From positions 1 through 26,322 of IMG/VR virus record IMGVR_UViG_3300045988_013119: DNA of 26,322 nucleotides, one strand, 5' to 3'. Positions 338-25,281 of this stretch are shown piece by piece. This stretch comes from a virus (Duplodnaviria; Heunggongvirae; Uroviricota; Caudoviricetes). A program made the position numbers and the translations under genes. The notes beneath the pieces were generated by a model. The model was not told the origin of the DNA, ran no database searches, and saw nothing but the letters and a program-made list of their open reading frames with translations. Within the stretch, counting starts at the first letter, position 1, and each line of letters begins with the position of its first letter.

Positions 338-355
338 AGGCCGCAAGAGCGGCCT
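338..355. terminator. Hairpin AGGCCGC-AAGA-GCGGCCT between convergent ORFs, candidate bidirectional terminator
   Basis: A 7-bp GC-rich stem with a 4-nt loop sits between the stop of 74-331 (+) and the stop of 354-1082 (-). T/A-rich tracts flank it on both sides. Confidence 0.45.
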
Positions 356-1082
356 ATCGTTTCGCTTTGTGCTCATCCCAGCACGTTTTGCACCATGCCA
401 TTAAGCCGTCCGCATTTTGATTATTAGGGTAAAAGCTGGTTCGTTTTCTGCGGACATTACAAATTGGGCACCACTTCATATGGCGTGTATTCTTTGGGCC
501 ATCGAGACACCTTGCACACCACTTAGTCAATCCATCTGGATTTTTTGACGATTTCCTGAATTTTTCATATGGAAGGTTTATTCTGCATCGCAAGCACTGC
601 TTGCTACCACTTGAAACTCTGTTAGCTGATTCTTCTTTTGGCGGCGATGCAGAAGGTATTCTTGCTGGCTCTGATACTGCCTGAGGTGCTTTTTTAGATG
701 ACTGAGACGATATGTCATCACCAGGGAATCTTCCATGATATGCCGGACGCGTTGACACTCCAGGTGGAAGCTCAGCTGTAAACGGCTTTGGCTGAATCAG
801 TTGCCTCTCTTTTGCTAACTCCTGCTGTTTATAATATGTCTGGATTACCGCACTATCATAAGCAGGAGGTGCGGAAATATTAGGCGCATTACCTCCAGTT
901 TTTTGAAACTGAGTAGAGGTGTGTTCTATCACCTGTGTACGATTAATCGTTATCTCCCCATCTTCGGTCTTTATCGTTTTGTTATGATTAACGACCGTAC
1001 GATCAGAGATCTTAGTCTTGTTCTGGTTGATAACGTAAATAATCACCGCAACCACACCAACAACTATCCAGAAAACTTCCAT
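354..1082 (-). CDS. Membrane-anchored protein with a C-terminal tandem Cys-rich (zinc-ribbon-like) domain; function unknown
   Basis: 242-aa ORF with GAGG 7 nt upstream of the ATG. Residues 4-18 (FWIVVGVVAVIIYVI) form a hydrophobic helix followed by K/R residues, then a Ser/Pro/Gln-rich linker. The C-terminus carries repeated CxxC ... DGL..WCxxC units (CLRC...PDGLTKWCARC; WCPIC...ADGLMAWCKTC). Confidence 0.8.
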   Translation of the reverse strand: MEVFWIVVGVVAVIIYVINQNKTKISDRTVVNHNKTIKTEDGEITINRTQVIEHTSTQFQKTGGNAPNISAPPAYDSAVIQTYYKQQELAKERQLIQPKPFTAELPPGVSTRPAYHGRFPGDDISSQSSKKAPQAVSEPARIPSASPPKEESANRVSSGSKQCLRCRINLPYEKFRKSSKNPDGLTKWCARCLDGPKNTRHMKWCPICNVRRKRTSFYPNNQNADGLMAWCKTCWDEHKAKR

Positions 1083-2311: not shown

Positions 2312-2485
2312 ATGCGAAACGAAAAATTGCAGATGCGTAGAGCGCAAGCTGCCGCAAGACGTTCTTTCAATGGAAGCGTAGAGTGCGTAAAAGTTACTAT
2401 GACAAAAGATCACGCAAGTCGCGTATCCCGCGCTTTCTTTGATTCTCGTAACAATAAGGAAAATTATGAGTTCGTCTGCGTCGCA
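2312..2485 (+). CDS. Small basic ORF (57 aa) overlapping the start of the YafO-like gene; candidate partner/antitoxin, unverified
   Basis: ATG at 2312 with GAGG at 2301-2304 (7-nt spacing). The ORF ends 20 nt inside the downstream gene, the usual toxin-antitoxin overlap geometry. It is below the size cutoff of the supplied ORF track. I recognise no homology. Confidence 0.3.
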
Positions 2486-3011
2486 GAATGATAAAAATCA
2501 AATTGTCAGATATAAGGGTCGAGTATTGCATACGCAAAATTTCTCGGCCCTTTGTGCATCTGATCTTGAGCTGAAGAAAGTATCTGATGCCTTTACCCAG
2601 TATTGGAAAACGGGATACCATCCATCTCTTGGTAAAGATGCTGCATTTGCTCGTCCGACAGAAATGCTTAAACTAAATGTCAGGCATACTCATGTCGATA
2701 ACCAAGACTATATTCCAGAAGATAGTGATAAAAAACACACTGGTAAAAAATCATCTTGGGATGCATGGAAAAATATAGCGTCTGTGCAAGTAAAATGCAT
2801 ACCAACAAGTGATTGCTTTTTAGTTTATTCGGTAAATCACAATCGTGATGCGCTGGTTATGTTTTTTGTTGACGCAGATGCCCACAACATAACTGAGCAA
2901 GAAGAGTTTAAAGAGGCAGCAATCACTATCAGTTATCAATTCTTTGAGAAAACAAAAACAGAACCAATGCCTTTAGAAGAAGATCTTTTTTCTGATAAAT
3001 GGAAGGAATAA
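2466..3011 (+). CDS. YafO-toxin-like domain protein (181 aa) encoded on a moron-like cargo locus
   Basis: ATG at 2466 with AAGGA upstream; the track's 2439 start lacks an RBS. Motifs GKDAAF...VRHTHVD...FLVYSVNHNRDALVMFFV...ADAH parallel the E. coli YafO motifs as I recall them (GRDALY...VAHIHL...HLVYCQG...). The gene looks AT-rich by eye, has its own terminator and is transcribed opposite to the tail genes. Confidence 0.7.
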   Translation: MSSSASQNDKNQIVRYKGRVLHTQNFSALCASDLELKKVSDAFTQYWKTGYHPSLGKDAAFARPTEMLKLNVRHTHVDNQDYIPEDSDKKHTGKKSSWDAWKNIASVQVKCIPTSDCFLVYSVNHNRDALVMFFVDADAHNITEQEEFKEAAITISYQFFEKTKTEPMPLEEDLFSDKWKE

Positions 3012-3266: not shown

Positions 3267-5741
3267 TTATTGCGGAGTGACATCCTGTGGTCGCCACCAG
3301 TATGTCTGGTTAAACTCTTTCTTCGAACGTTGCTCCATTTTACGCAAATAGCCTGGTGAAAAATACTCCTGCATCTGGTTAAAGATCATGTGATCGAGAG
3401 CCGCCTTTAAGTACCAGAGATTCGCACCTGGCATCAAACCTTTCCCCAGCTTCACCAGATCACCACCAGTCTGCTCACTCTTCCCTTCCACAGCATTTAA
3501 CGGTATGCCCTGAGCAATCTTCACTACGTCATCAACCAGACCAGCTACCGGGCCAAGCATCGACGCCAGCGCGCCGCTTCCGTACCTAGTGTGATCTGAC
3601 AATAAAAAGTCACCGTAAAGGCCAAGACCACCACCTTTCAGTAGAGCACCAAGCCAAAATTTAGCAGCATCTTCTCCTGTCATCTCGCGAGGATTACGAC
3701 CAGACGCAAGGTCGTTAAGTTGCTGCGACAAAGCGCCAAGAATGGTCGTACTGGCAATAAACGTCGCAATATATGCCGCACGCCCACCAGCAGACGGCAT
3801 ACCCATAGCGCGTGACCAGTGACGCATAACTACCGAGATAGGGAACGATTTAAACAGGAAAACACTTCTCGTTAATTCACCTTTCCATGTTCCACGCTGA
3901 ATACCAGAACCGGTTATCAGTTGCTCACGTGCTCCCGGTGTAATAACAGCCATATCAACTTCTTCAGTTACGGCACCGAGAAGTTTACGCATTGCCTCAA
4001 ATTTCACGCGTTCAGGCTCACCAAGATGTTTAACTGCTGAATCAGGGATACGCATAATGCTTTCCGGTGTCAGCATCGTATTATTGCCGTTCCCCCAGTC
4101 CTCCTGTTGCGCCAGCTTCCATACGCTCCAGTCTGTTTCAGTAATCCCTTTGCTTTTCAGGATACGAAAATCAGAGTCATCGAGGCTACGAAGGTCTGGT
4201 GTCCGTGACACTACCTCTCCCAGGCTTCCCATCATTGTTACGCCATAGGCGCGCTTGTGCGCATCTGACCATGCTGTAAGCCCACTGGCACGCATTACCG
4301 CCGTTGCCGCCCAACGAGACACAGACGGCCCCATATTATCCATTGCCCAGCGGTTAACACTGCCAAGTAGAGATTCCATCGCCAGACCAGCGCGGCGCGC
4401 CCGCGCAAGCTCAGTACGGTTCGTTGGGTCCATAGCTTCAAGCTGGTTGCGGAATAACTGGTTCATTGGAAGGTTGGTCACCTTCGCAGACAGATACATG
4501 GTTCCAAGATCAGAGAACGATGACAGCAACGCGGATCCTAGTCGGCTGGCAACCAGCCAGTTGCGGATATTGTCAGACCAGCGCGCGATGTGCGGATTCG
4601 CTACAGGCTGTGTCTTTCCGGAAATAAAGTTGTACAGATTCTCTGTGTTGTTCGCCAGCCGCTCGACTTTACCGGTTTTACTCGGGTTAGCTGTTGCCGT
4701 TTCTGCCTTCACCTGATCAAGAAGAGAGCGGAAAACATGATCGGGGTTTGGGCCATATGTTTCCACCAGTGCAATATCTTTACTGATACCTTCCAGGTGA
4801 CCGACCATGATTTCCCATAGAGAGCGATCGCCATAAAGTTGCTGATATTGCAGATAGGAATCTGCATCTTTGAAATGTATCTGTCGTGATGCATTACCCC
4901 GGTTAGCACGTGCGCCGGAAATTCGCATTCCGGTATCAGTAAGCTTATTCAGCCCACCAGTAGCGATCGTGTTATAAGCCTCTCCAAGAAATGCAGACAA
5001 CTCGGCATCGTTCATCAGTTGTCCATCGACTCGGGTATAATATTTGCGATCCAGCTTACCTATAACATCGCTAACCCACTTATCCTTTGATACCGCCCCA
5101 ACCTTTTCCATAGAATGATGTTGAGGGATCCCCCAGTTTTCGAGATAGCCAATGTCCCCACCAGCATCATTAAACCGGCGGCGCAGTAGCTCTGTCACTT
5201 CTCTCCACGCCTTAGCACCTTTTCTTGCTTTAGCATTGCCAGTATTTTGCCCTCGCATTTCATATACCAGGTCACGCACGCCAGCTTCATCTTCAAACAG
5301 GCCAAAAAAGCGAGGATCAACTGCTTCAAATGCCTCCTGCAATTGACTCAATGCATAATCACGAGTGGCTTTTGTTCTGGATTCAACAGAGAGGAAATTC
5401 GATTTACCGTCTGCATTAAAAGCAATAGTACGGTTAAGAGCGCCAAGTTTCCCATCAGCCCCTTGATAGCTATTGATAAATTTATCCAATCTCTGACGTG
5501 CGGCTATAGTGAGAGCCACACGACGTTTCTTTAATGCCGCTTCTCGCTGTAATTCTTCAGATGCCAATTGTGCTGCACGATACAACCGTTCTGATTCGGA
5601 AAGTTGTCGCCACGACATCGGATCATCACGAGCAATGGAGCGCATATTTCGATAAATGCGGTCTTCAATGTTCTGTATTTCTCGCGCCGTTAACGTGCGC
5701 TGCGCCGCCTGCTGGACCGCTTGTATACATTCCTGTCTCAT
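3267..5741 (-). CDS. Large internal virion (ejection-type) protein, 824 aa
   Basis: Last large ORF of the structural operon, with GAGG RBS. The C-terminal third contains hydrophobic Gly/Ala-rich segments typical of podovirus ejection proteins. Position matches the T7 gp15/gp16 slot. Confidence 0.8.
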   Translation of the reverse strand: MRQECIQAVQQAAQRTLTAREIQNIEDRIYRNMRSIARDDPMSWRQLSESERLYRAAQLASEELQREAALKKRRVALTIAARQRLDKFINSYQGADGKLGALNRTIAFNADGKSNFLSVESRTKATRDYALSQLQEAFEAVDPRFFGLFEDEAGVRDLVYEMRGQNTGNAKARKGAKAWREVTELLRRRFNDAGGDIGYLENWGIPQHHSMEKVGAVSKDKWVSDVIGKLDRKYYTRVDGQLMNDAELSAFLGEAYNTIATGGLNKLTDTGMRISGARANRGNASRQIHFKDADSYLQYQQLYGDRSLWEIMVGHLEGISKDIALVETYGPNPDHVFRSLLDQVKAETATANPSKTGKVERLANNTENLYNFISGKTQPVANPHIARWSDNIRNWLVASRLGSALLSSFSDLGTMYLSAKVTNLPMNQLFRNQLEAMDPTNRTELARARRAGLAMESLLGSVNRWAMDNMGPSVSRWAATAVMRASGLTAWSDAHKRAYGVTMMGSLGEVVSRTPDLRSLDDSDFRILKSKGITETDWSVWKLAQQEDWGNGNNTMLTPESIMRIPDSAVKHLGEPERVKFEAMRKLLGAVTEEVDMAVITPGAREQLITGSGIQRGTWKGELTRSVFLFKSFPISVVMRHWSRAMGMPSAGGRAAYIATFIASTTILGALSQQLNDLASGRNPREMTGEDAAKFWLGALLKGGGLGLYGDFLLSDHTRYGSGALASMLGPVAGLVDDVVKIAQGIPLNAVEGKSEQTGGDLVKLGKGLMPGANLWYLKAALDHMIFNQMQEYFSPGYLRKMEQRSKKEFNQTYWWRPQDVTPQ

Positions 5742-17062: not shown

Positions 17063-17355
17063 TCCTGTTCACTGGCCTCTTTGGCCATCTTCAAATACTG
17101 TTCAGGGCAATGCGCCATAACGCGCTGAAACAGTTCCAGCGCCAGATTGCGTTGCCCCTCATTAAATGCCATTGCCATAGCATCCATCGGAGAGATAGCG
17201 GAAAACACCCGGCCTTTCTCCAGCACCGACCAGACAACGCGACGCCCCTGTTCACTGCTCATGACAAAGCGAATGTCATCAATTTCACGCTGTGCCATGT
17301 CACGTTGCTTACGGGCGTTTTCTTCTTTCAGTTGATCGTCTTCGTAATCTGTCAT
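17059..17355 (-). CDS. Small protein between portal and scaffold genes, 98 aa
   Basis: Four-nt overlaps with both neighbours, consistent with translational coupling. Confidence 0.7.
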   Translation of the reverse strand: MTDYEDDQLKEENARKQRDMAQREIDDIRFVMSSEQGRRVVWSVLEKGRVFSAISPMDAMAMAFNEGQRNLALELFQRVMAHCPEQYLKMAKEASEQE

Positions 17356-19031
17356 TGTGATTGCCCACCCTGACCACTAACTGCATTCGCCATAGCTGAC
17401 AACACACTCGGATCCGAAGTTTTAGCTTCGCTTAGCGTCTTGGCCCCCTGTGCCGCCGCCATCCCCATCGCCATCATTTGTTGCTGCTGTTGTTGCTGTG
17501 CCCGTTGCTGGCGAGCCTGCTCAACCTGTTCCTGCGGAACAATGACGGTTGGAGACACTCCGGACATATCAGCGAATGCATCGATCGCCTGATCAACGTT
17601 GAGTTTGTCGAGAGCTTCTGGTTTCGCTTGCGCAAGTTGACCAATGAAGTTAACCGTGGACGCCAGACTGGACAGGCCGATAGACTTCTGCGCCTGAGCC
17701 ATGACGGAAATGTATTCGACCTTCAGGGGCATGCCTTCCATCGCGTCAGGCGGTGGCGGCAGCATGTTTTTGCGCACCATCATCGAGAAAGCGCGGTCAA
17801 TGAGAGGATTAAGACATTCGTCGTTCAGACGCTCCAGAACCGGCCCCAACATCAGAAGTTTTTCTTCTTTCATTTCGATCACCGCTTCAACAGGCATCGA
17901 GCGGGTATTGATGTTCTGCAACATCATGAACAGATCGACAAAGTAGGCGCTGTTAATGATTTGACGAGTGTCCTGAATGTCTGCCACCAAATCTGCTGTA
18001 CTGGGGTTAACCAGATAAGCAGGCCTGAAGCCATCCTGACCAGTAATCTGATCGATATACGTGATGTCGCCAGGAAGAAGGGAGGCGCGCTGATTCTTGA
18101 GGGAAGTCGGAGCAACCATCGGCGGATTGGTGGCTTTATCAATCAACTGCGACTTGCGCTTCTGGAGAAGCTGCAATGCCTTAACAGGTCCAAGCGCCAG
18201 CATACCCGGGCATGATGATCCATAAACATCTTCGCCGTTAACTTCCCAGCGCGGAGCCATAATTGGAAACTCATCGAATCCGGACTCACGCAACAACTTG
18301 TCGTTATCTCCACCAACCTCGTAATAAACCGATTTGAATGGCTTGTTCTTGCTATCCAGCTTCGATGTATCGCGGTCAATGTTCGGGTAAACCGAATGCA
18401 TCACTTCGATCCACTTCTCGTAGGTGCCGCTTTCCCACATGCTTTTTACGGATTCGCTGACGTTATTTAGCCCGAACTCCTGAACAAGCTGACGAACAGT
18501 CATAGAGAACTTGCGAAAACAGGTGTCAACACTGCCACGAGGTGAGTTAGCCAGGTAGTAACTGCCTATCGGGAATGGCATTGTGCGAATGATGTCCTCG
18601 TCATCCTCCAGCACTGCCATTGCACCAGTGCTGTATGTGCCGAGGCTTCCGTATAACTGCGGAAGAGACTGGTAGAGATTCGACTTATTGAACATATCGT
18701 TCATGCGGTTCTGAACTGCCTCAAGCCACAACTTAACAGGGCCATAATCCATCATTTCAGGATCTGGCGTAGCCAGGCGAAACCACGGACGCGCGGGGCT
18801 TGTGATGCCTGACATCATGCCGCTGGCGAGAGTGCGCGCCGCCATAGTCCCGGTCGAATCAATAATGCGTGTATTGCGCCGATCGTTACGGTTGGCCTCA
18901 GAAGTCAGAAAGCGGGAACCACGCGGGTTGATGTAATCACTCAACTCGCGCCAGTGCGGCTCGAACGACTGACGCTCGCTTTCAAGTTGTGCGAACTGTT
19001 TGTTCAATCGCTCTTTAGTTGTTTCCGCCAT
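17352..19031 (-). CDS. Portal protein, 559 aa
   Basis: Large ORF immediately upstream of scaffold and capsid with GGAG RBS. The Gln/Ala/Gly-rich C-terminal tail (QQRAQQQQQQQMMAMGMAAAQG) resembles the T7 gp8 C-terminus by memory. Confidence 0.8.
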   Translation of the reverse strand: MAETTKERLNKQFAQLESERQSFEPHWRELSDYINPRGSRFLTSEANRNDRRNTRIIDSTGTMAARTLASGMMSGITSPARPWFRLATPDPEMMDYGPVKLWLEAVQNRMNDMFNKSNLYQSLPQLYGSLGTYSTGAMAVLEDDEDIIRTMPFPIGSYYLANSPRGSVDTCFRKFSMTVRQLVQEFGLNNVSESVKSMWESGTYEKWIEVMHSVYPNIDRDTSKLDSKNKPFKSVYYEVGGDNDKLLRESGFDEFPIMAPRWEVNGEDVYGSSCPGMLALGPVKALQLLQKRKSQLIDKATNPPMVAPTSLKNQRASLLPGDITYIDQITGQDGFRPAYLVNPSTADLVADIQDTRQIINSAYFVDLFMMLQNINTRSMPVEAVIEMKEEKLLMLGPVLERLNDECLNPLIDRAFSMMVRKNMLPPPPDAMEGMPLKVEYISVMAQAQKSIGLSSLASTVNFIGQLAQAKPEALDKLNVDQAIDAFADMSGVSPTVIVPQEQVEQARQQRAQQQQQQQMMAMGMAAAQGAKTLSEAKTSDPSVLSAMANAVSGQGGQSQ

Positions 19032-19045
19032 TTCAATGACTCCGG

Positions 19046-19252
19046 TTACTGACCAAGCAGCGTTTTACCGCTGGTATTAGCGGTTGATGTGTCGCCCTGA
19101 GAACCGGTAAGCAGCGTAGAACTACGACCAGCAGCAGCGCGACGGCGACGTGTTTCTTCGTCGCGGGCATCAACAACGGCAGCATCCTGCTCCTGTGGTG
19201 CTGCCTGAACTTCTGGTGTTGCAGGCACTGATGGTGAGCTACCCATGCACAT
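19046..19252 (-). CDS. Small hypothetical protein, 68 aa, upstream of portal
   Basis: ATG at 19252 with GGAG 8 nt upstream. Its start context (CGGAGTCATTGA then ATG) duplicates the portal start context at 19033-19044, which supports a real translation start. Confidence 0.5.
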   Translation of the reverse strand: MCMGSSPSVPATPEVQAAPQEQDAAVVDARDEETRRRRAAAGRSSTLLTGSQGDTSTANTSGKTLLGQ

Positions 19253-19341
19253 ATCAATGACTCCGTACGCAATTAAATTATTACCAATTTAACCACATAT
19301 GATTTATTTATCGTAGATAGTTGACATTTAACGCGCGAATT

Positions 19342-19358
19342 ATTACCTTTCAGGTAAC
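19342..19358. promoter_or_regulatory. Operator-like inverted repeat ATTACCTTTCAGGTAAC (copy C)
   Basis: Shares ATTACCTT-N3-GGTAA with copies A and B. A perfect TTGACA hexamer lies at 19321-19326, and the 10-mer AATTATTACC is also present at 19276-19285. Confidence 0.4.
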
Positions 19359-19679
19359 TAAAGAGTTCATTCCGGTTACTAACCTGACTGGCTTGTCGTT
19401 AAATTGAACAGGTGGAGTGAGCTTTTATTTTGAGCAGTACGGCGTATGGCACATGCGACGATAGCGGTCTGGATACGTTTAAGGGGCACCCTCCCTTGCT
19501 CGGGCAAACGAACCAGGTAGCCGGAATGTGCAAGTCGAGCGGTTTTATTCCGCGCACGGGGATTCACCATCCCGGCGATTCGGTGTGACGCCTCGGAAGA
19601 GACGAGGGTACAACGATGAGAGCATTTATGGAGCCGCGACAAAGTGTGGTGCCTTAACAGGCTAAGTGCTCTCAGCGTT

Positions 19680-19756
19680 GTGGCATTAGCTCAGTTGGAC
19701 AGAGCAACCGCCTTCTAAGCGGTTGGTCGCAGGTTCGAATCCTGCATGCCACGCCA
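19680..19756 (+). tRNA. tRNA-Arg (anticodon UCU), phage-encoded, argU-like core with a divergent acceptor stem
   Basis: Cloverleaf read by hand: acceptor GTGGCAT/ATGCCAC, D-arm GCTC-AGTTGGACA-GAGC, anticodon arm ACCGC-CTTCTAA-GCGGT (anticodon TCT), variable TGGTC, T-arm GCAGG-TTCGAAT-CCTGC, discriminator G, encoded CCA. Confidence 0.85.
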
Positions 19757-19799
19757 GAATCACGCCTAAGGACCGTGATGCCAGAAGTTCCAGGGGCTT

Positions 19800-19841
19800 G
19801 GCGGTGATGGTTTCCCTTGAAGGACTATCACCGCCCTTTTT
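19800..19841 (+). terminator. Terminator downstream of the tRNA (GGCGGTGAT ... ATCACCGCC then CTTTTT)
   Basis: 9-bp perfect stem with an 18-nt loop followed by a T-run. Confidence 0.5.
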
Positions 19842-19919
19842 ACAGCAGGACGCCATTGCGATGACTTCATGCTGTAAACCAGTACAGCCACGGAAGGCAT
19901 AACTCATTGCTTCCAGTTC

Positions 19920-19943
19920 GCCCGGTTCGCCGGGCATTTTTTT
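19920..19943 (+). terminator. Strong hairpin plus U-tract (GCCCGG-TTCG-CCGGGC then ATTTTTTT) abutting the RBS of the 140-aa ORF; terminator or attenuator
   Basis: 6-bp GC stem with a UUCG tetraloop and 7 T. Only about 11 nt separate the T-run from the ATG at 19955. Confidence 0.6.
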
Positions 19944-19954
19944 AAGGTGAGATT

Positions 19955-20377
19955 ATGAAGACAATTGATATGTTGGCTAAGTATCTAAATGAATGGCCAT
20001 TAAAATATTCTCGTATCGTTCAGGCTGAAGACTGCGTTTTTTATGGCGTTTTTGCTGGTAATGAAATGCATTACGAAGTAATTCAGAGTGAGGGACTGAC
20101 CGGGTTAACTCTTAGCGAAGACCATGGTACTAGCGTTACGTTCCATGACTGGATAACAGCACAACGTTCTGAAATGGAAAAAGGCGATGTGTTTGATATT
20201 TCTCGCTCTGTATACGCCAAAGAAAAAAGTGATGATGATTACATGCGCGAAAACTTATACAACATGAAGTTACAATGCCTGGCTGAAGTGCTTAGTAAAA
20301 GATCTTTACTTGATGTGGTTGGTGCTGAGCAGGACGCCAAGGCAATCAACGCCGCATTCGATAAAATAACCTTCTAA
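19955..20377 (+). CDS. Hypothetical soluble protein, 140 aa, on a cargo locus between terminase and portal
   Basis: AAGGTGA RBS. The ORF looks AT-rich by eye and is transcribed opposite to the late operon. It has its own terminator and no hydrophobic segments. I recognise no homology. Confidence 0.75.
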   Translation: MKTIDMLAKYLNEWPLKYSRIVQAEDCVFYGVFAGNEMHYEVIQSEGLTGLTLSEDHGTSVTFHDWITAQRSEMEKGDVFDISRSVYAKEKSDDDYMRENLYNMKLQCLAEVLSKRSLLDVVGAEQDAKAINAAFDKITF

Positions 20378-20381
20378 CGCA

Positions 20382-20393
20382 GTGACATGTCAC
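20382..20393. repeat. 12-bp perfect palindrome GTGACATGTCAC, copy 2
   Basis: Exact 12-mer 5 nt after the TAA stop of the 140-aa ORF and 4 nt before the terminator hairpin. Confidence 0.9.
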
Positions 20394-20396
20394 AAA

Positions 20397-20424
20397 CAGC
20401 CAGCCGATGAGCTGGCTTTGTTTT
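20397..20424 (+). terminator. Rho-independent terminator (AGCCAGC-CGATGA-GCTGGCT then TTGTTTT)
   Basis: 7-bp stem and T-rich tail between the convergent 140-aa ORF and the terminase large subunit gene. Confidence 0.65.
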
Positions 20425-20467
20425 ATCCTCATCAGAGGATATCAACGACATTATCCCCACCAGCGGA

Positions 20468-21943
20468 TTAAGCATAGGGATCGTAATCTGTGATGGCCTT
20501 GCCTTGCTGGTTCTGCTGACCGGGAATTCGCAGACGCTTCGACACAGGGAACGCAAACGTCAGCAGTAGCGCATCGCCTTTACCAGGAGAACGCCCAAGC
20601 CGCTCCTTGATATCTTCCTTCTGTTCGATAATGATTTTACCGTCCACGCGAACTTTGTACTCTGCCGCCGACAGGTCGTCCGCTGTTTCCTGGTCATCCA
20701 GCATGCCGCCCAGCCTCAGCCATGTCTTGCATGAATTGAACATCTCCCCACGCTTGTTGAGCATCTGCGGGTCAGTAGACGCGCCACCGAACGGAACAAG
20801 TTGCCATGTACGACCCCATCCGTCACCGATTGACTTCAAACCGGTTCCGTAACCGAAGTCGATGAACACCGCGTCAGCCTGATACTGGTCTTCAAAGTCA
20901 GCGATACGCTTTGCCATAATCAGATCGTCAGTGGTCTTGTTGCCAGTCCACAGCACCTTACTGTGCAGCCCCTGCCGCAGGTATATCACAGCGTCATCAA
21001 CGCCTGAGTATGCCGGGTCAACGCCGATTATCACCGGAGCATGTGCAACCTGCGCAGCGGTGACCACCCGTTTCATTGCCTCGTCAGTAAGTCCGGTAGG
21101 GATAAACTGCAATTCAGATGCATCCGGGAATATGCCGCGCACACGGATTTTAACGAAGTCGCTGTCTTCCCCGTAGTCATCAACCCATTTCTGCAACTGC
21201 TGTTTGTTGGTGCCTTCCACCGTCCGGCTGTCAATCTGCGCAGTTTTCCAGCGGTGTTTATATTTGCGGAAACATTCGCGGAAACGTCCGGTATTACGCG
21301 TCGGGTTTCCGAACGCCACCCAGATAATCTCAGTGTCTTCGTCCGTTAGCGCACCCTCGGCAACTTCCCACACCAGATCCGCAATGTTCGACGCTTCATC
21401 GAATACCACGATGATGCGTTTGCGCTCGTTGTGTAGTCCGGCGAATGCCTCAGTGTTGTGCTCAGACCAGGGTATTGCGTCAGCTCGCCACCGCTTGTCG
21501 TGTCCAGGATCATTGCTGTACATCGCGGTAGCGGTACAGGTAAACCAGTCTTTCGTGATAGCAAGGTTCGACCACTTGATAATTTCCGGCCAGGTCTTCG
21601 TTCGTAGCTGGTTGTCGGTGTTGGCGGTCACCACAACCTTACAATCCTCGCAAGTGGACATGCCCCAGTTGATCAGCATTGAGATGAATGCGGATTTACC
21701 AATACCGTGACCCGAAGCGCGTGCCAGCATAAGCGGCTGATAGCGCGTCTCTGGATTCTGCAGGTGATCACGTATCTCTCGGAACGCATCAGCCTGCCAC
21801 TGACGTGGACCGGTGGCATGTGCCAGTTCAGTCCCATCTTCCCCCCACGGGAACGCATAGAGGGCATAGCCAAGCGGATCGTGAGTGAACCCTGCAATAT
21901 CCTCGATTAACTGCTCTTCAGGAGATAACGCTGTATCTGTCAC
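20468..21943 (-). CDS. Terminase large subunit, 491 aa
   Basis: P-loop-like SGHGIGKS, Walker-B-like IIVVFDEAS, a C-terminal nuclease-type region (VIIGVDPAYSG), and a four-nt overlap with the small subunit gene. Confidence 0.9.
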   Translation of the reverse strand: MTDTALSPEEQLIEDIAGFTHDPLGYALYAFPWGEDGTELAHATGPRQWQADAFREIRDHLQNPETRYQPLMLARASGHGIGKSAFISMLINWGMSTCEDCKVVVTANTDNQLRTKTWPEIIKWSNLAITKDWFTCTATAMYSNDPGHDKRWRADAIPWSEHNTEAFAGLHNERKRIIVVFDEASNIADLVWEVAEGALTDEDTEIIWVAFGNPTRNTGRFRECFRKYKHRWKTAQIDSRTVEGTNKQQLQKWVDDYGEDSDFVKIRVRGIFPDASELQFIPTGLTDEAMKRVVTAAQVAHAPVIIGVDPAYSGVDDAVIYLRQGLHSKVLWTGNKTTDDLIMAKRIADFEDQYQADAVFIDFGYGTGLKSIGDGWGRTWQLVPFGGASTDPQMLNKRGEMFNSCKTWLRLGGMLDDQETADDLSAAEYKVRVDGKIIIEQKEDIKERLGRSPGKGDALLLTFAFPVSKRLRIPGQQNQQGKAITDYDPYA

Positions 21944-24187: not shown

Positions 24188-24679
24188 TCACTCTCCTTTG
24201 ATGCGAATGCCAGTGGTACTCATTCTCCTGATTTCCCAAAGCACACGAGGAACACCACCGTTTCCGACCGGATCGCGTTTACTCCGCAGGGCGACGCTTG
24301 ATTCCGCCCAGCTTTTTCTTGGAGGAAGCTCTTTCACACGAACAAAACCAGCTGCGCGAAGAGATGCTCCTGATTCATCTGCCTGGGTGTACGTAATACA
24401 ACGTTGATAACCCATAGCTTTTGCTGCCCGCCAGACAGCACCATAAAGCGCGCTGTTAGCGTTGCGTTCTCCTGTGGTACATGTGCGATTTACTTCAAGT
24501 GTTAATCCATCGTCCAAATGTCGTGCAACAGGTCTACCAGCTGTCGCCACACCTATCAATTCTCCGGCATCATTTCTCAGACCAATGCTGAATTTATGCC
24601 CAACAGGTGGTTTATTGTGTCGGTGATGTCTGGATATAAACGCCTTCGCAACACGAAGAGTAACCGGTGAAATTTGCAT
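24188..24679 (-). CDS. Hypothetical protein, 163 aa, possibly GNAT-fold acetyltransferase-like
   Basis: Start at the internal ATG at 24679 with AAGGAG RBS. The motif ASLRAAGFVRV is a weak GNAT-like signature. Confidence 0.65.
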   Translation of the reverse strand: MQISPVTLRVAKAFISRHHRHNKPPVGHKFSIGLRNDAGELIGVATAGRPVARHLDDGLTLEVNRTCTTGERNANSALYGAVWRAAKAMGYQRCITYTQADESGASLRAAGFVRVKELPPRKSWAESSVALRSKRDPVGNGGVPRVLWEIRRMSTTGIRIKGE

Positions 24680-24681
24680 TC

Positions 24682-25281
24682 TCACTCTCCTTTGATGCCA
24701 ATGTTTACAGCCTGGCAAGCCTCTTTGAGCACCCAGTCAACAGCGTCTTTCCATGCTCCGGTTTCGGCTGGCGGATTCTCATTTTTTACCTGCTCATAGA
24801 AACGCATTGCTTTAACCAGTCCTTCAGGCACTACCGACGCTGGCAAGGCGGGGTGATGGTAGAGTGGCACAGTTTTGTACAGTGGCTCGCCAGGAGTTCT
24901 GTCAACCTGATTCCATTCTTCAACCCAGGCATCAACAACCGCTTTGCTGGTTGATACATGTTCTTCTGAATCTACATTTTGTCCTGATATACAGAACATA
25001 ACTGCCTCTGCTTCCAGCTCGCCCAGCAGCGCTAAGACGGTAGCGGGATTGGCTGCGGCGATGAATTCAGCATTGGCCTGCTGTTCCATTTGGAAATCTT
25101 CATCGAAACCGCTTTCTGGATGCGCCCCTTCAATTCTGCAAATGGGAATATATCCAGCAGCCTCGCGATGAATTAGAGCATCATCACCATCAAATCGGCC
25201 CTCTCCATATTCGAGCGACCACTCGCCACACGTTGCTTTTTCTGCCTTAGCACGCAGTGCCTGATAATCAATCTTGCTCAC
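24682..25281 (-). CDS. Ead/Ea22-like prophage protein, 199 aa
   Basis: The segment FIAAANPATVLALLGELEAE and overall acidic composition match my recollection of the Ea22-like family common in lambdoid early regions. Confidence 0.7.
   Translation of the reverse strand: MSKIDYQALRAKAEKATCGEWSLEYGEGRFDGDDALIHREAAGYIPICRIEGAHPESGFDEDFQMEQQANAEFIAAANPATVLALLGELEAEAVMFCISGQNVDSEEHVSTSKAVVDAWVEEWNQVDRTPGEPLYKTVPLYHHPALPASVVPEGLVKAMRFYEQVKNENPPAETGAWKDAVDWVLKEACQAVNIGIKGE

Follow-up and report, generated by a model that had tools for sequence, protein, structure and literature searches.

A widespread structured RNA family at a putative early control point of temperate phages

The stretch of viral DNA analyzed here (IMG/VR record IMGVR_UViG_3300045988_013119, positions 1 to 26,322; hereafter the window, at its full length of 26,322 nucleotides, nt) contains a gap between its terminase and portal genes in which a first-pass annotation had identified two plus-strand elements, a tRNA-Arg(UCU) gene and an open reading frame (ORF) of 140 amino acids, ORF140. 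Taken alone, these two are routine phage accessories. The most conserved component of the gap, and an unusual one, is a 246-nt RNA (19438-19683, plus strand) upstream of the tRNA and outside the region originally flagged. This RNA is a conserved, strand-specific structure that belongs to a family absent from Rfam, and the family, which is well supported, widespread and uncharacterized, occupies a position central to the control of temperate phages. The gap as a whole may be a single plus-strand, repressor-controlled accessory transcription unit that is standard in epsilon15/phiV10-like phages (genus Uetakevirus), with the RNA as a cis-acting antiterminator or early leader RNA resembling the put RNA of phage HK022. 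A probability of roughly 0.4 is assigned to this combined reading.

The components of the unit are arranged in the order promoter/operator (19321-19357), 80-nt leader, structured RNA, tRNA-Arg(UCU), terminator T1, terminator T2, swappable ORF and terminator T3. The region as first delimited, which starts at the tRNA, does contain the tRNA, the terminators and ORF140, but it omits 19253-19679, where the promoter, the operator and the structured RNA are found. A prophage of Escherichia coli strain 85.0412 matches the flagged region at 100% identity, and the Uetakevirus phages phiV10, HEMP4, PAS61 and TL-2011b match it at 94-98%. The view that the locus is an insertion private to this phage does not hold, as the unit is kept across Uetakeviruses of Escherichia, Salmonella, Klebsiella and Enterobacter.

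Sequence, structure and covariation of the RNA

In a BLAST search with the gap sequence, the approximately 245 nt preceding the tRNA (19439-19683) were 80-84% identical to unannotated DNA of unrelated phages. An alignment of these elements consists of near-invariant blocks between hairpins that vary in both sequence and length, and one-base indels are present within the conserved blocks, ruling out protein coding. The window copy scores 142 bits (E 4e-48) with the covariance model R1. Its fold begins with helix P1 (19440-19445 with 19455-19460) and helix P2 (19468-19472 with 19513-19517), the latter enclosing a variable hairpin, P3. These are followed by the variable hairpin P4 (19535-19558), helix P5 (19559-19563 with 19569-19573), a pseudoknot between CACC at 19565-19568 and GGTG at 19582-19585, helix P6 (19591-19595 with 19603-19607) and the long 3' stem P7 (19611-19624 with 19667-19680), all on the plus strand. 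The loop of P7 varies from 31 to 97 nt, and its stem contains clear compensatory variants. The element ends with GUGG at 19680-19683.

The structure was scored on 56 non-redundant sequences (<95% identical), using four nested helices and two pseudoknots. In total, 94.6% of the cells are paired, as opposed to 27-48% in controls with slid partners. Pairs with changes on both sides number 13, compared with 8.7 in shuffled alignments (two of 500 reached 13), and the covariation score is 0.242 versus 0.115, with none of the 500 shuffles reaching the observed value. The CACC/GGTG pseudoknot switches to AACC/GGTT in six of the sequences. The G-U pairs work on the plus strand only, which identifies this as the RNA strand. 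The fold predicted from a single sequence is not better than those of shuffles (z = -1.0), and the structural signal is therefore derived from between-sequence comparison only.

These data also bear on whether the conservation could be due to a gene on the opposite strand (mEp460_037 in phage mEp460, or an 87-amino acid ORF at 19379-19642 in the window) or to a site acting at the DNA level. Hypothetical proteins are indeed annotated antisense to the element in some records. However, most records have no annotation there, the PHROG match of the 87-amino acid ORF is marginal and covers 21 residues, and the one-base indels in conserved blocks, the differing lengths of the variable segments, the compensatory changes that preserve helices and the strand-specific G-U pairs all argue against it, making this explanation hardly credible. 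The ORF at 19379-19642 (minus strand), which resembles the mEp460_037 annotation, is probably a spurious gene call. The same is probably true of the ORF at 19686-19937 (minus strand), antisense to the tRNA, which corresponds to PhiV10p04 and phrog_4647 and seems to have been propagated through databases.

An invariant 19-nt strand, GGUAGCCGGAAUGUGCAAG (19516-19534, plus strand), lies inside the structured RNA. The 19-mer, GGTAGCCGGAATGTGCAAG, showed no variation among the 13 phage sequences of the initial alignment, all of them obtained by BLAST. Loci added afterwards were selected by an exact match to it, so that their invariance at these positions is circular. Exact matches were obtained in 24 genome stretches and in at least 120 viral contigs, with 120 distinct core sequences. 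Approximately four chance matches to a 19-mer are expected at the size of the database searched, and a match in an Oscillospiraceae genome bin was discarded as such, given that the rest of the element is absent there. A complete element on a 1.7-kb contig in a Bacillota genome bin is probably the result of enterobacterial contamination or mis-binning.

The 19-nt strand is a candidate docking site for two loops, that of helix P1 (GCACAU, 19449-19454, with AUGUGC, 19526-19531) and that of hairpin P3 (CUUG, 19492-19495, with CAAG, 19531-19534). The first of these pairings never varies among the 56 sequences, and is thus neither supported nor refuted by covariation. The stem sequences of P3 are very different from each other, and yet a CCUUG loop motif is present in most of ten sequences viewed by eye; a possible partner for this motif is CAAG in the invariant strand. 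An alternative from RNAalifold, in which TCYGG pairs with the invariant CCGGA, was dropped; TCYGG covaries with CCRGG. Resemblances of the element to CRISPR repeats and complementarity to 16S rRNA, both noticed by eye, were dismissed as unsupported.

Two features of P7 merit description. Its 3' strand (19667-19683 in the window, and in other loci) reads UGCUCUCA, UGCUCUUUCC or UGCUCUUAUC, which resembles a boxA of the form UGCUCU(U/C)(U/C/A), and is followed by the GU-rich GUUGUGG and, in copies that have no tRNA, by a small hairpin, GCGCAGGCUGAUGCGC, similar to a D-arm or a boxB. The boxA likeness is a lead and not evidence, as the strand is paired and covaries with its partner. Additionally, in the variants from 1720a and SPN1S (L009 at about 2200-2300 and L015 at about 2130-2230), the P7 loop contains two hairpins similar to tRNA T-arms, CTGGTTCAATTCCAG and GTCCGTTCGATTCGGAC, which could be tRNA fragments or tRNA mimicry.

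Distribution and copy number

A search of the 4227 models in Rfam 15 against 19200-20500, at E values up to 10, detected only the tRNA, along with weak chance matches elsewhere, and a search with the lambdoid copies likewise found no family match for the element. No description of it was found in Rfam or in the searchable literature. From IMG/VR, Fremin et al. (2023) have catalogued 8,495 candidate structured RNAs without naming them, and one of the entries, DNAVirus_2961, sometimes overlaps tRNA-Arg predictions (PMC10690425). The catalogue was built from the viral contig collection that also holds the window, and may include this RNA; for DNAVirus_2961, the main text of that report gives no function, context or name. 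The Pas small RNAs were also considered as an identity for the element, and were rejected as belonging to a different locus.

Of 5426 complete E. coli genomes, 1840 (34%) carry the element, on chromosomes and on P1-like plasmids, and among the matches listed, no annotated feature lies beneath it except for the adjoining tRNA. Phage carriers include the lambdoid phages mEp460 and cdtI, Stx2c phages and some Stx2a phages, as well as P1, P7, D6 and SJ46. Further copies are found in Klebsiella and Enterobacter phages and in one phage listed under Stenotrophomonas. With filters off, a covariance model made from the alignment detects one copy in the window and one in the whole mEp460 genome; in neither did nhmmer and the covariance model find a second copy, whether in the early-right (PR) operon or elsewhere. 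One locus (L057) has two tandem copies on the minus strand (3991-4155 and 4798-4960), downstream of a cI-like repressor. They flank an opposite-strand ORF of 166 amino acids, which suggests that the element can serve as a recombination junction for cargo.

Genomic contexts in other phages

In 76 of 149 loci, the nearest large ORF upstream is encoded on the same strand and belongs to a single cluster of cI-like repressors, 50 of which contain the GDSM motif of S24 proteins. Between cI and the element, mEp460 has the cI terminator, operator-like repeats and a promoter (TTGCAT-17-TATCTT), making the element the leader of the early-left transcript, and a strong terminator separates it from the first early-left gene. 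No N-like ORF was detected downstream in 50 loci behind a cI-like repressor, nor is one present in the mEp460 annotation. The lytic Klebsiella phage SopranoGao has a terminator and a promoter immediately ahead of the element. In phage P1, the element is part of the ban operon, which C1 controls, and is flanked by trnI and ban. The contexts are nearly always the 5' end of a co-oriented unit, whether the early-left (PL) leader of lambdoid phages without N, the P1 ban operon or the unit in the window. The mEp460, P1 and window contexts thus place the RNA in an early transcript under repressor control in each of these three types of phage.

In 25 of the 54 contexts examined (46%), a strong co-oriented terminator (dG, the predicted folding free energy, <= -15) follows the element within 600 nt. 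The corresponding figures are five of 54 for the other strand and 10% for control windows, although the 54 contexts are not phylogenetically independent, which weakens this enrichment as support for antitermination. In many contexts, the strong terminator lies 250-420 nt downstream of the element. A complex, conserved 5'-leader fold followed by a terminator is also what would be expected of a ligand- or tRNA-sensing attenuator, similar to a riboswitch, that decides whether early transcription stops at the downstream terminator; the association with tRNAs and the T-arm-like inserts would fit such a sensor. However, the terminator is outside the conserved fold, 100-190 nt further on, and in the window a whole tRNA lies between the two, so that no expression platform based on alternative pairing is visible. 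The downstream genes are, moreover, unrelated across contexts, and an attenuator is quite improbable.

The relationship to tRNAs is variable. In 159 loci for which the tRNA context was assessed, 109 have no nearby tRNA, and the other 50 are fused head-to-tail to one: a tRNA-Arg(UCU) is directly 3' of the element in 29 and a tRNA-Ile(AAU) in two, while a tRNA with a CAU anticodon is directly 5' in 19 (P1-like). Downstream of the copies without a tRNA, neither Rfam nor ARAGORN gives a signal for a tRNA remnant.

Predicted promoter, operator and leader of the unit in the window

A sigma-70-type promoter is predicted at 19321-19349 (plus strand), with a -35 hexamer TTGACA (19321-19326), a 17-nt spacer and a -10 hexamer TACCTT (19344-19349), and transcription would be expected to start near 19356. 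This promoter was read from the sequence and is not reported by a promoter scan, as its -10 hexamer matches three of the six consensus bases; the layout TTGACA-N17-TACCYT is also present in SPN1S and in an Enterobacter prophage. It agrees with the earlier proposal that any promoter for ORF140 must lie upstream of the terminators, and with the consequence that ORF140 needs read-through. The 5' leader (19358-19437, plus strand) is kept in an alignment of Uetakeviruses, including epsilon15, in which the BLAST match to it spans query positions 13-95.

An operator-like palindrome, TTACCTTTCAGGTAA (19343-19357), overlaps both the -10 hexamer and the predicted start site. The pattern TTACCTnnnAGGTAA, with up to two mismatches, occurs seven times in the window, compared with 0.5 occurrences expected, and none of 100 shuffles reached seven. 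Three of the best matches (1103, 1196 and 2237) fall within the immunity region, with its C4 RNA and antirepressor, and the other is the palindrome at 19343-19357. One type of operator therefore marks both the C4/antirepressor region and the RNA/tRNA unit, and in the epsilon15 record a repressor site is annotated at the position equivalent to the 19343-19357 palindrome. Phage P1 provides a parallel, with C1 controlling both immI (c4) and ban according to its record. Since the promoter is overlapped by an operator palindrome of the immunity region, the RNA/tRNA unit is probably an early lytic transcript and not cargo expressed by the lysogen.

The immunity region itself resembles an immI module (1103-2251), with operator palindromes at 1103, 1196 and 2237. 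An isrK-like RNA (1247-1323) is followed by a C4 antisense RNA (1342-1428), and the two RNAs overlap the beginning of the ORF for a Bro-N antirepressor (1324-2163).

Terminators, ORF140 and the cargo slot

The terminator predicted to belong to the tRNA, T1 (19800-19841, plus strand; hairpin 19800-19835), was confirmed as a predicted structure, with a 14-bp stem followed by CTTTTT and a dG of -22.8 kcal/mol. T2 (19920-19943, plus strand; hairpin 19920-19935) consists of GCCCGG-TTCG-CCGGGC followed by ATTTTTTT, with a dG of -12.7. It abuts the Shine-Dalgarno sequence of ORF140, and its T-run ends at 19943, 11 nt before the ATG, exactly as had been noted. Both an Enterobacter prophage and epsilon15 have kept T2, and the epsilon15 record lists it as a rho-independent terminator. 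T3 (20398-20425, plus strand; hairpin 20398-20417; dG -12.1) closes the unit before the convergent terminase gene. A scan of the gap for hairpins with T-tracts found no terminator on the minus strand, and antisense late transcription through the unit is consequently not obviously blocked.

ORF140 (19955-20377, plus strand) begins with an ATG after AAGGTGAG, and its Shine-Dalgarno sequence is good. It had been described as AT-rich by eye, and its GC content is 0.40, compared with 0.50 for the window. It matches phrog_4846 from end to end (E 6.5e-92), and 103 homologs, down to 38% identity and with conserved columns, identify it as a member of a real gene family of unknown function. These homologs are all from Enterobacteriaceae and all annotated as hypothetical; in one Enterobacter prophage, a homolog at 42% identity occupies exactly this slot. 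Among 1.84 billion representative proteins, a profile search detected no more than 33 matches, and the few long, multi-repeat ones have no meaningful Pfam domains. Beyond the phrog_4846 family, the search for relatives by sequence and structure was negative: there is no match in Pfam at E values up to 0.1, in PADLOC at E values up to 1 or among PDB sequences, and the AlphaFold model, which is of low confidence (predicted local distance difference test, pLDDT, 61), gives no Foldseek match in the PDB at E values up to 0.001.

In 44 Uetakevirus loci, the slot after T2 contains ORF140 in 19, a gene similar to Sf6 gp66 in 11 (as in phiV10 and epsilon15), a 263-amino acid protein in seven and others in the remainder. 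The ORFs in this slot represent at least five unrelated families, and they always begin at one junction after T2, about 440 nt beyond the invariant block. It thus appears that only the ORF after T2 is swappable cargo. The slot is therefore a cargo hotspot, as the first-pass annotation proposed; that ORF140 is a defence or counter-defence gene is not borne out by any defence model or fold.

The type phage epsilon15 (L005, 2450-2720) is a deletion derivative: the RNA core and the tRNA are gone, whereas the leader, the first hairpin, T2, the cargo ORF and half of T1 remain. Its record annotates RNase III, repressor and IHF sites there.

The tRNA and AGA codons

The first-pass annotation proposed an argU-like tRNA with a divergent acceptor stem, and both elements of this description stand. 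The only tRNA that ARAGORN finds in the window is a tRNA-Arg (tct, anticodon position 35) with an encoded CCA at 19680-19756 (plus strand), and the Rfam tRNA model RF00005 concurs (73.3 bits, versus a gathering threshold of 29). The tRNA is therefore genuine, and its acceptor stem differs from that of the host argU. The RNA element closes with a conserved GUUGUGG, the final GUGG of which doubles as the first four bases of the tRNA; the GUUGUGG is also kept in copies without a tRNA. The shared GUGG may explain the unusual acceptor stem. It also means that RNase P would separate the RNA and the tRNA; by analogy with the general mechanism of tRNA 5' maturation, the cut would be expected at 19679/19680.

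AGA codons occur at 6.7 per 1000 codons in the prophage genes, and at 0.87 per 1000 in 43 core genes of the same host strain, a 7.7-fold enrichment (p = 3e-13). The expected enrichment in late genes is seen only in part, since AGA is concentrated in the large tail/ejection genes and in early genes, but is absent from the capsid, portal and terminase genes. Because of the overall enrichment, codon supplementation is a reasonable and plausible role for the tRNA.

From these features, the unit could be interpreted as a plain cargo locus, in which the tRNA offsets rare AGA codons, ORF140 is a defence or counter-defence gene and the RNA is only a processing or stabilizing leader, for example one that protects against Rho or RNase E. 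In addition to the AGA enrichment and the variable ORF slot, this would be consistent with the approximately 600 nt of untranslated transcript between the start site and ORF140, which would be exposed to Rho unless structured, and with the boxA-like 3' strand of P7. However, the 109 loci without a nearby tRNA indicate that the RNA is not a tRNA leader, and a pseudoknotted fold with 19 invariant bases, preserved across phages that share nothing else, exceeds what stabilization needs. Along with the absence of a defence-model or fold match for ORF140, and the pairing and covariation of the boxA-like strand, these points make it unlikely that the locus is cargo of this kind.

A possible antiterminator or early leader RNA

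The preferred reading, a put-like, cis-acting antiterminator or early leader that consists of RNA only, is favoured because the element shares with HK022 putL its position, a lack of N, terminators further downstream and genes in the same orientation. Upon induction or infection, the repressor would leave the operator and the unit would be transcribed. The nascent RNA would fold and act on its own RNA polymerase, as the HK022 put RNA does by binding the zinc-binding domain of the beta' subunit, and a fraction of the polymerases would pass T1 and T2 into the cargo ORF. The RNase P cut would free the tRNA, which could then decode the AGA codons that are enriched about 8-fold in phage genes. ORF140 would be expressed solely via read-through, and this mechanism would account for its expression despite the two terminators ahead of it. 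The corresponding event in lambdoid phages would be read-through of the leader terminator into an early-left operon that lacks an N protein. A more specific version, in which the RNA (165-246 nt) represents a new class of RNA-only processive antiterminator, or another polymerase-reprogramming RNA, that replaces N/nut or put, is tentative and somewhat doubtful.

Several points weigh against this reading. HK022 has both putL and putR, and lambda has both nutL and nutR, whereas the element is present as a single copy in the window and in mEp460, with none in the mEp460 PR operon. Epsilon15 lacks the RNA core, the tRNA and an intact T1 and yet keeps T2 and its cargo ORF, indicating that the RNA is not indispensable for keeping the ORF. 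P1-type copies do not have P7, have no terminator within 600 nt downstream and are located 2.3 kb from Pban, and P1 can form plaques without its ban operon region (PMC10695390). In addition, the promoter, cleavage by RNase P and antitermination itself are putative. Finally, the enrichment in terminators is equally expected for a stand-alone RNA gene with its own terminator, and the tRNA fusion, with the release by RNase P that it implies, fits a free, stable RNA at least as well.

Those last two points lead to the main and most serious rival, a stable, trans-acting RNA that is freed by RNase P or by its own terminator during early lytic growth. Such an RNA might bind or mimic a conserved host component, serving as a decoy or inhibitor of a nuclease, of a tRNA-directed defence or of an RNA-binding protein, or it might be a ribozyme; the terminators would merely end the RNA gene, and ORF140 would be expressed by leakage. 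The head-to-tail fusion to tRNAs in 50 of the 159 loci is in line with this, as tRNA processing would then define the ends of the RNA, and the invariant 19-nt strand and complex fold suggest recognition of a conserved partner. The T-arm-like hairpins in some P7 loops, the strong terminators 250-420 nt downstream, the single copy per genome (window and mEp460) and the retention of the cargo ORF without the RNA in epsilon15 are all compatible with a free RNA. On the other hand, the element is almost always 5' of co-oriented genes, an arrangement that a free RNA gene would not need, and in lambdoid phages it sits between the early-left promoter and the entire early-left operon. No candidate target was identified, and a trans-acting role, although it has to be taken seriously, is on the whole doubtful.

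Whichever role applies, a covarying RNA sits at what appears to be an early control point of temperate phages, including P1 and toxin-converting phages. Standard pipelines leave it unannotated, some records have apparently spurious antisense ORFs in its place, and it deserves a curated family. If the RNA does represent a new class of antiterminator, this class would be present in a large set of temperate phages of enterobacteria, among them lambdoid phages without N (including cdt- and Stx2c-converting phages), P1-like plasmid prophages and epsilon15-like podoviruses, and about one third of sequenced E. coli would carry an unrecognized regulator of prophage early gene expression.

Flanking genes and other features of the window

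On the minus strand, the small and large terminase genes are followed by the gap, a gene for a 68-amino acid gp3-like protein and the portal gene. The large terminase subunit gene (20468-21943), identified by the phiV10 and epsilon15 annotations, forms the right flank of the gap, and the gp3-like late gene (19046-19252; phrog_831) forms the left flank. The gap between them measures 1215 nt, and not about 1.4 kb as first estimated. The portal gene (17352-19031; PF12236, E 9e-188, and RefSeq annotation) follows the gp3-like gene.

Three other ORFs in the window may be of interest. An ORF of 190 amino acids (2439-3011, plus strand; 37% GC) adjoins the immunity region and may be a further cargo gene; its match to the Pfam YafO toxin model is at the cutoff (25.8 bits versus 25). 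A 176-amino acid ORF (24188-24718, minus strand) has a weak match to the Mom family, below the cutoff (22.7 bits versus 27.1). Beside the operators, a 242-amino acid ORF (354-1082, minus strand) has PHROGs matches to endonuclease VII and HNH-like zinc finger proteins.

Comparison with known systems

Phage morons and other cargo in late-operon hotspots resemble the unit in having a variable, AT-rich ORF between terminators, in the opposite orientation within a structural gene block. Unlike a moron, ORF140 has no private promoter and belongs to a conserved RNA/tRNA unit, and the repressor operator on its promoter points to early lytic and not lysogenic expression. ROOL, GOLLD and the P1 C4 RNA, which is released by RNase P, are likewise phage non-coding RNAs beside tRNA genes, and tRNA maturation enzymes would set the ends of the element. 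However, ROOL and GOLLD are 500-800 nt in length, are from other phyla and are represented in Rfam, with no match in the window. C4, of which the window has a copy as well, is an antisense RNA of only 87 nt, and its target is known.

To our knowledge, RNA-only antitermination is known from very few systems, namely HK022 put and Bacillus EAR, and how lambdoid phages without N pass their early terminators is mostly unexamined. The EAR RNA of the Bacillus eps operon is a pseudoknotted intra-operon RNA that promotes read-through of distal terminators. Its mid-operon position resembles that of the P1 ban copy; it is from another phylum, however, and has no sequence relationship to the element, which has no Rfam match. 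The nut sites of lambda and P22 (boxA-boxB), together with the boxA of rrn operons, are comparable to the element in several respects. These include the early-left leader position, the boxA-like strand of P7, the GU-rich GUUGUGG and the small hairpin that follows it in copies without a tRNA. In contrast to the N/nut system, the element loci have no N-like gene (50 loci and mEp460), and the boxA-like strand is paired in P7. P1-type and some other copies do not have P7 at all.

The closest parallel is the HK022 put RNA, which makes RNA polymerase resistant to terminators without any protein (PMC9378689). Like the element, put is a cis-encoded structured RNA just after the early-left promoter of a lambdoid phage without N, and in both cases there are terminators downstream for early transcription to pass and no dedicated phage protein nearby (PMC9378689). 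The two differ in that put is about 70 nt in length, with two stem-loops, and is present in two copies (PL and PR), whereas the element is 165-246 nt in length, with at least four helices and a pseudoknot, and is present once per genome in the window and in mEp460; the element profile has no match in the nun-cI-cro region of HK022. The same order of parts is nevertheless found in mEp460 (promoter, element, terminator, early-left genes) and in the window (operator/promoter, element, T1/T2). The likeness to put is therefore positional only, and it is this position that makes antitermination a candidate function for the RNA.

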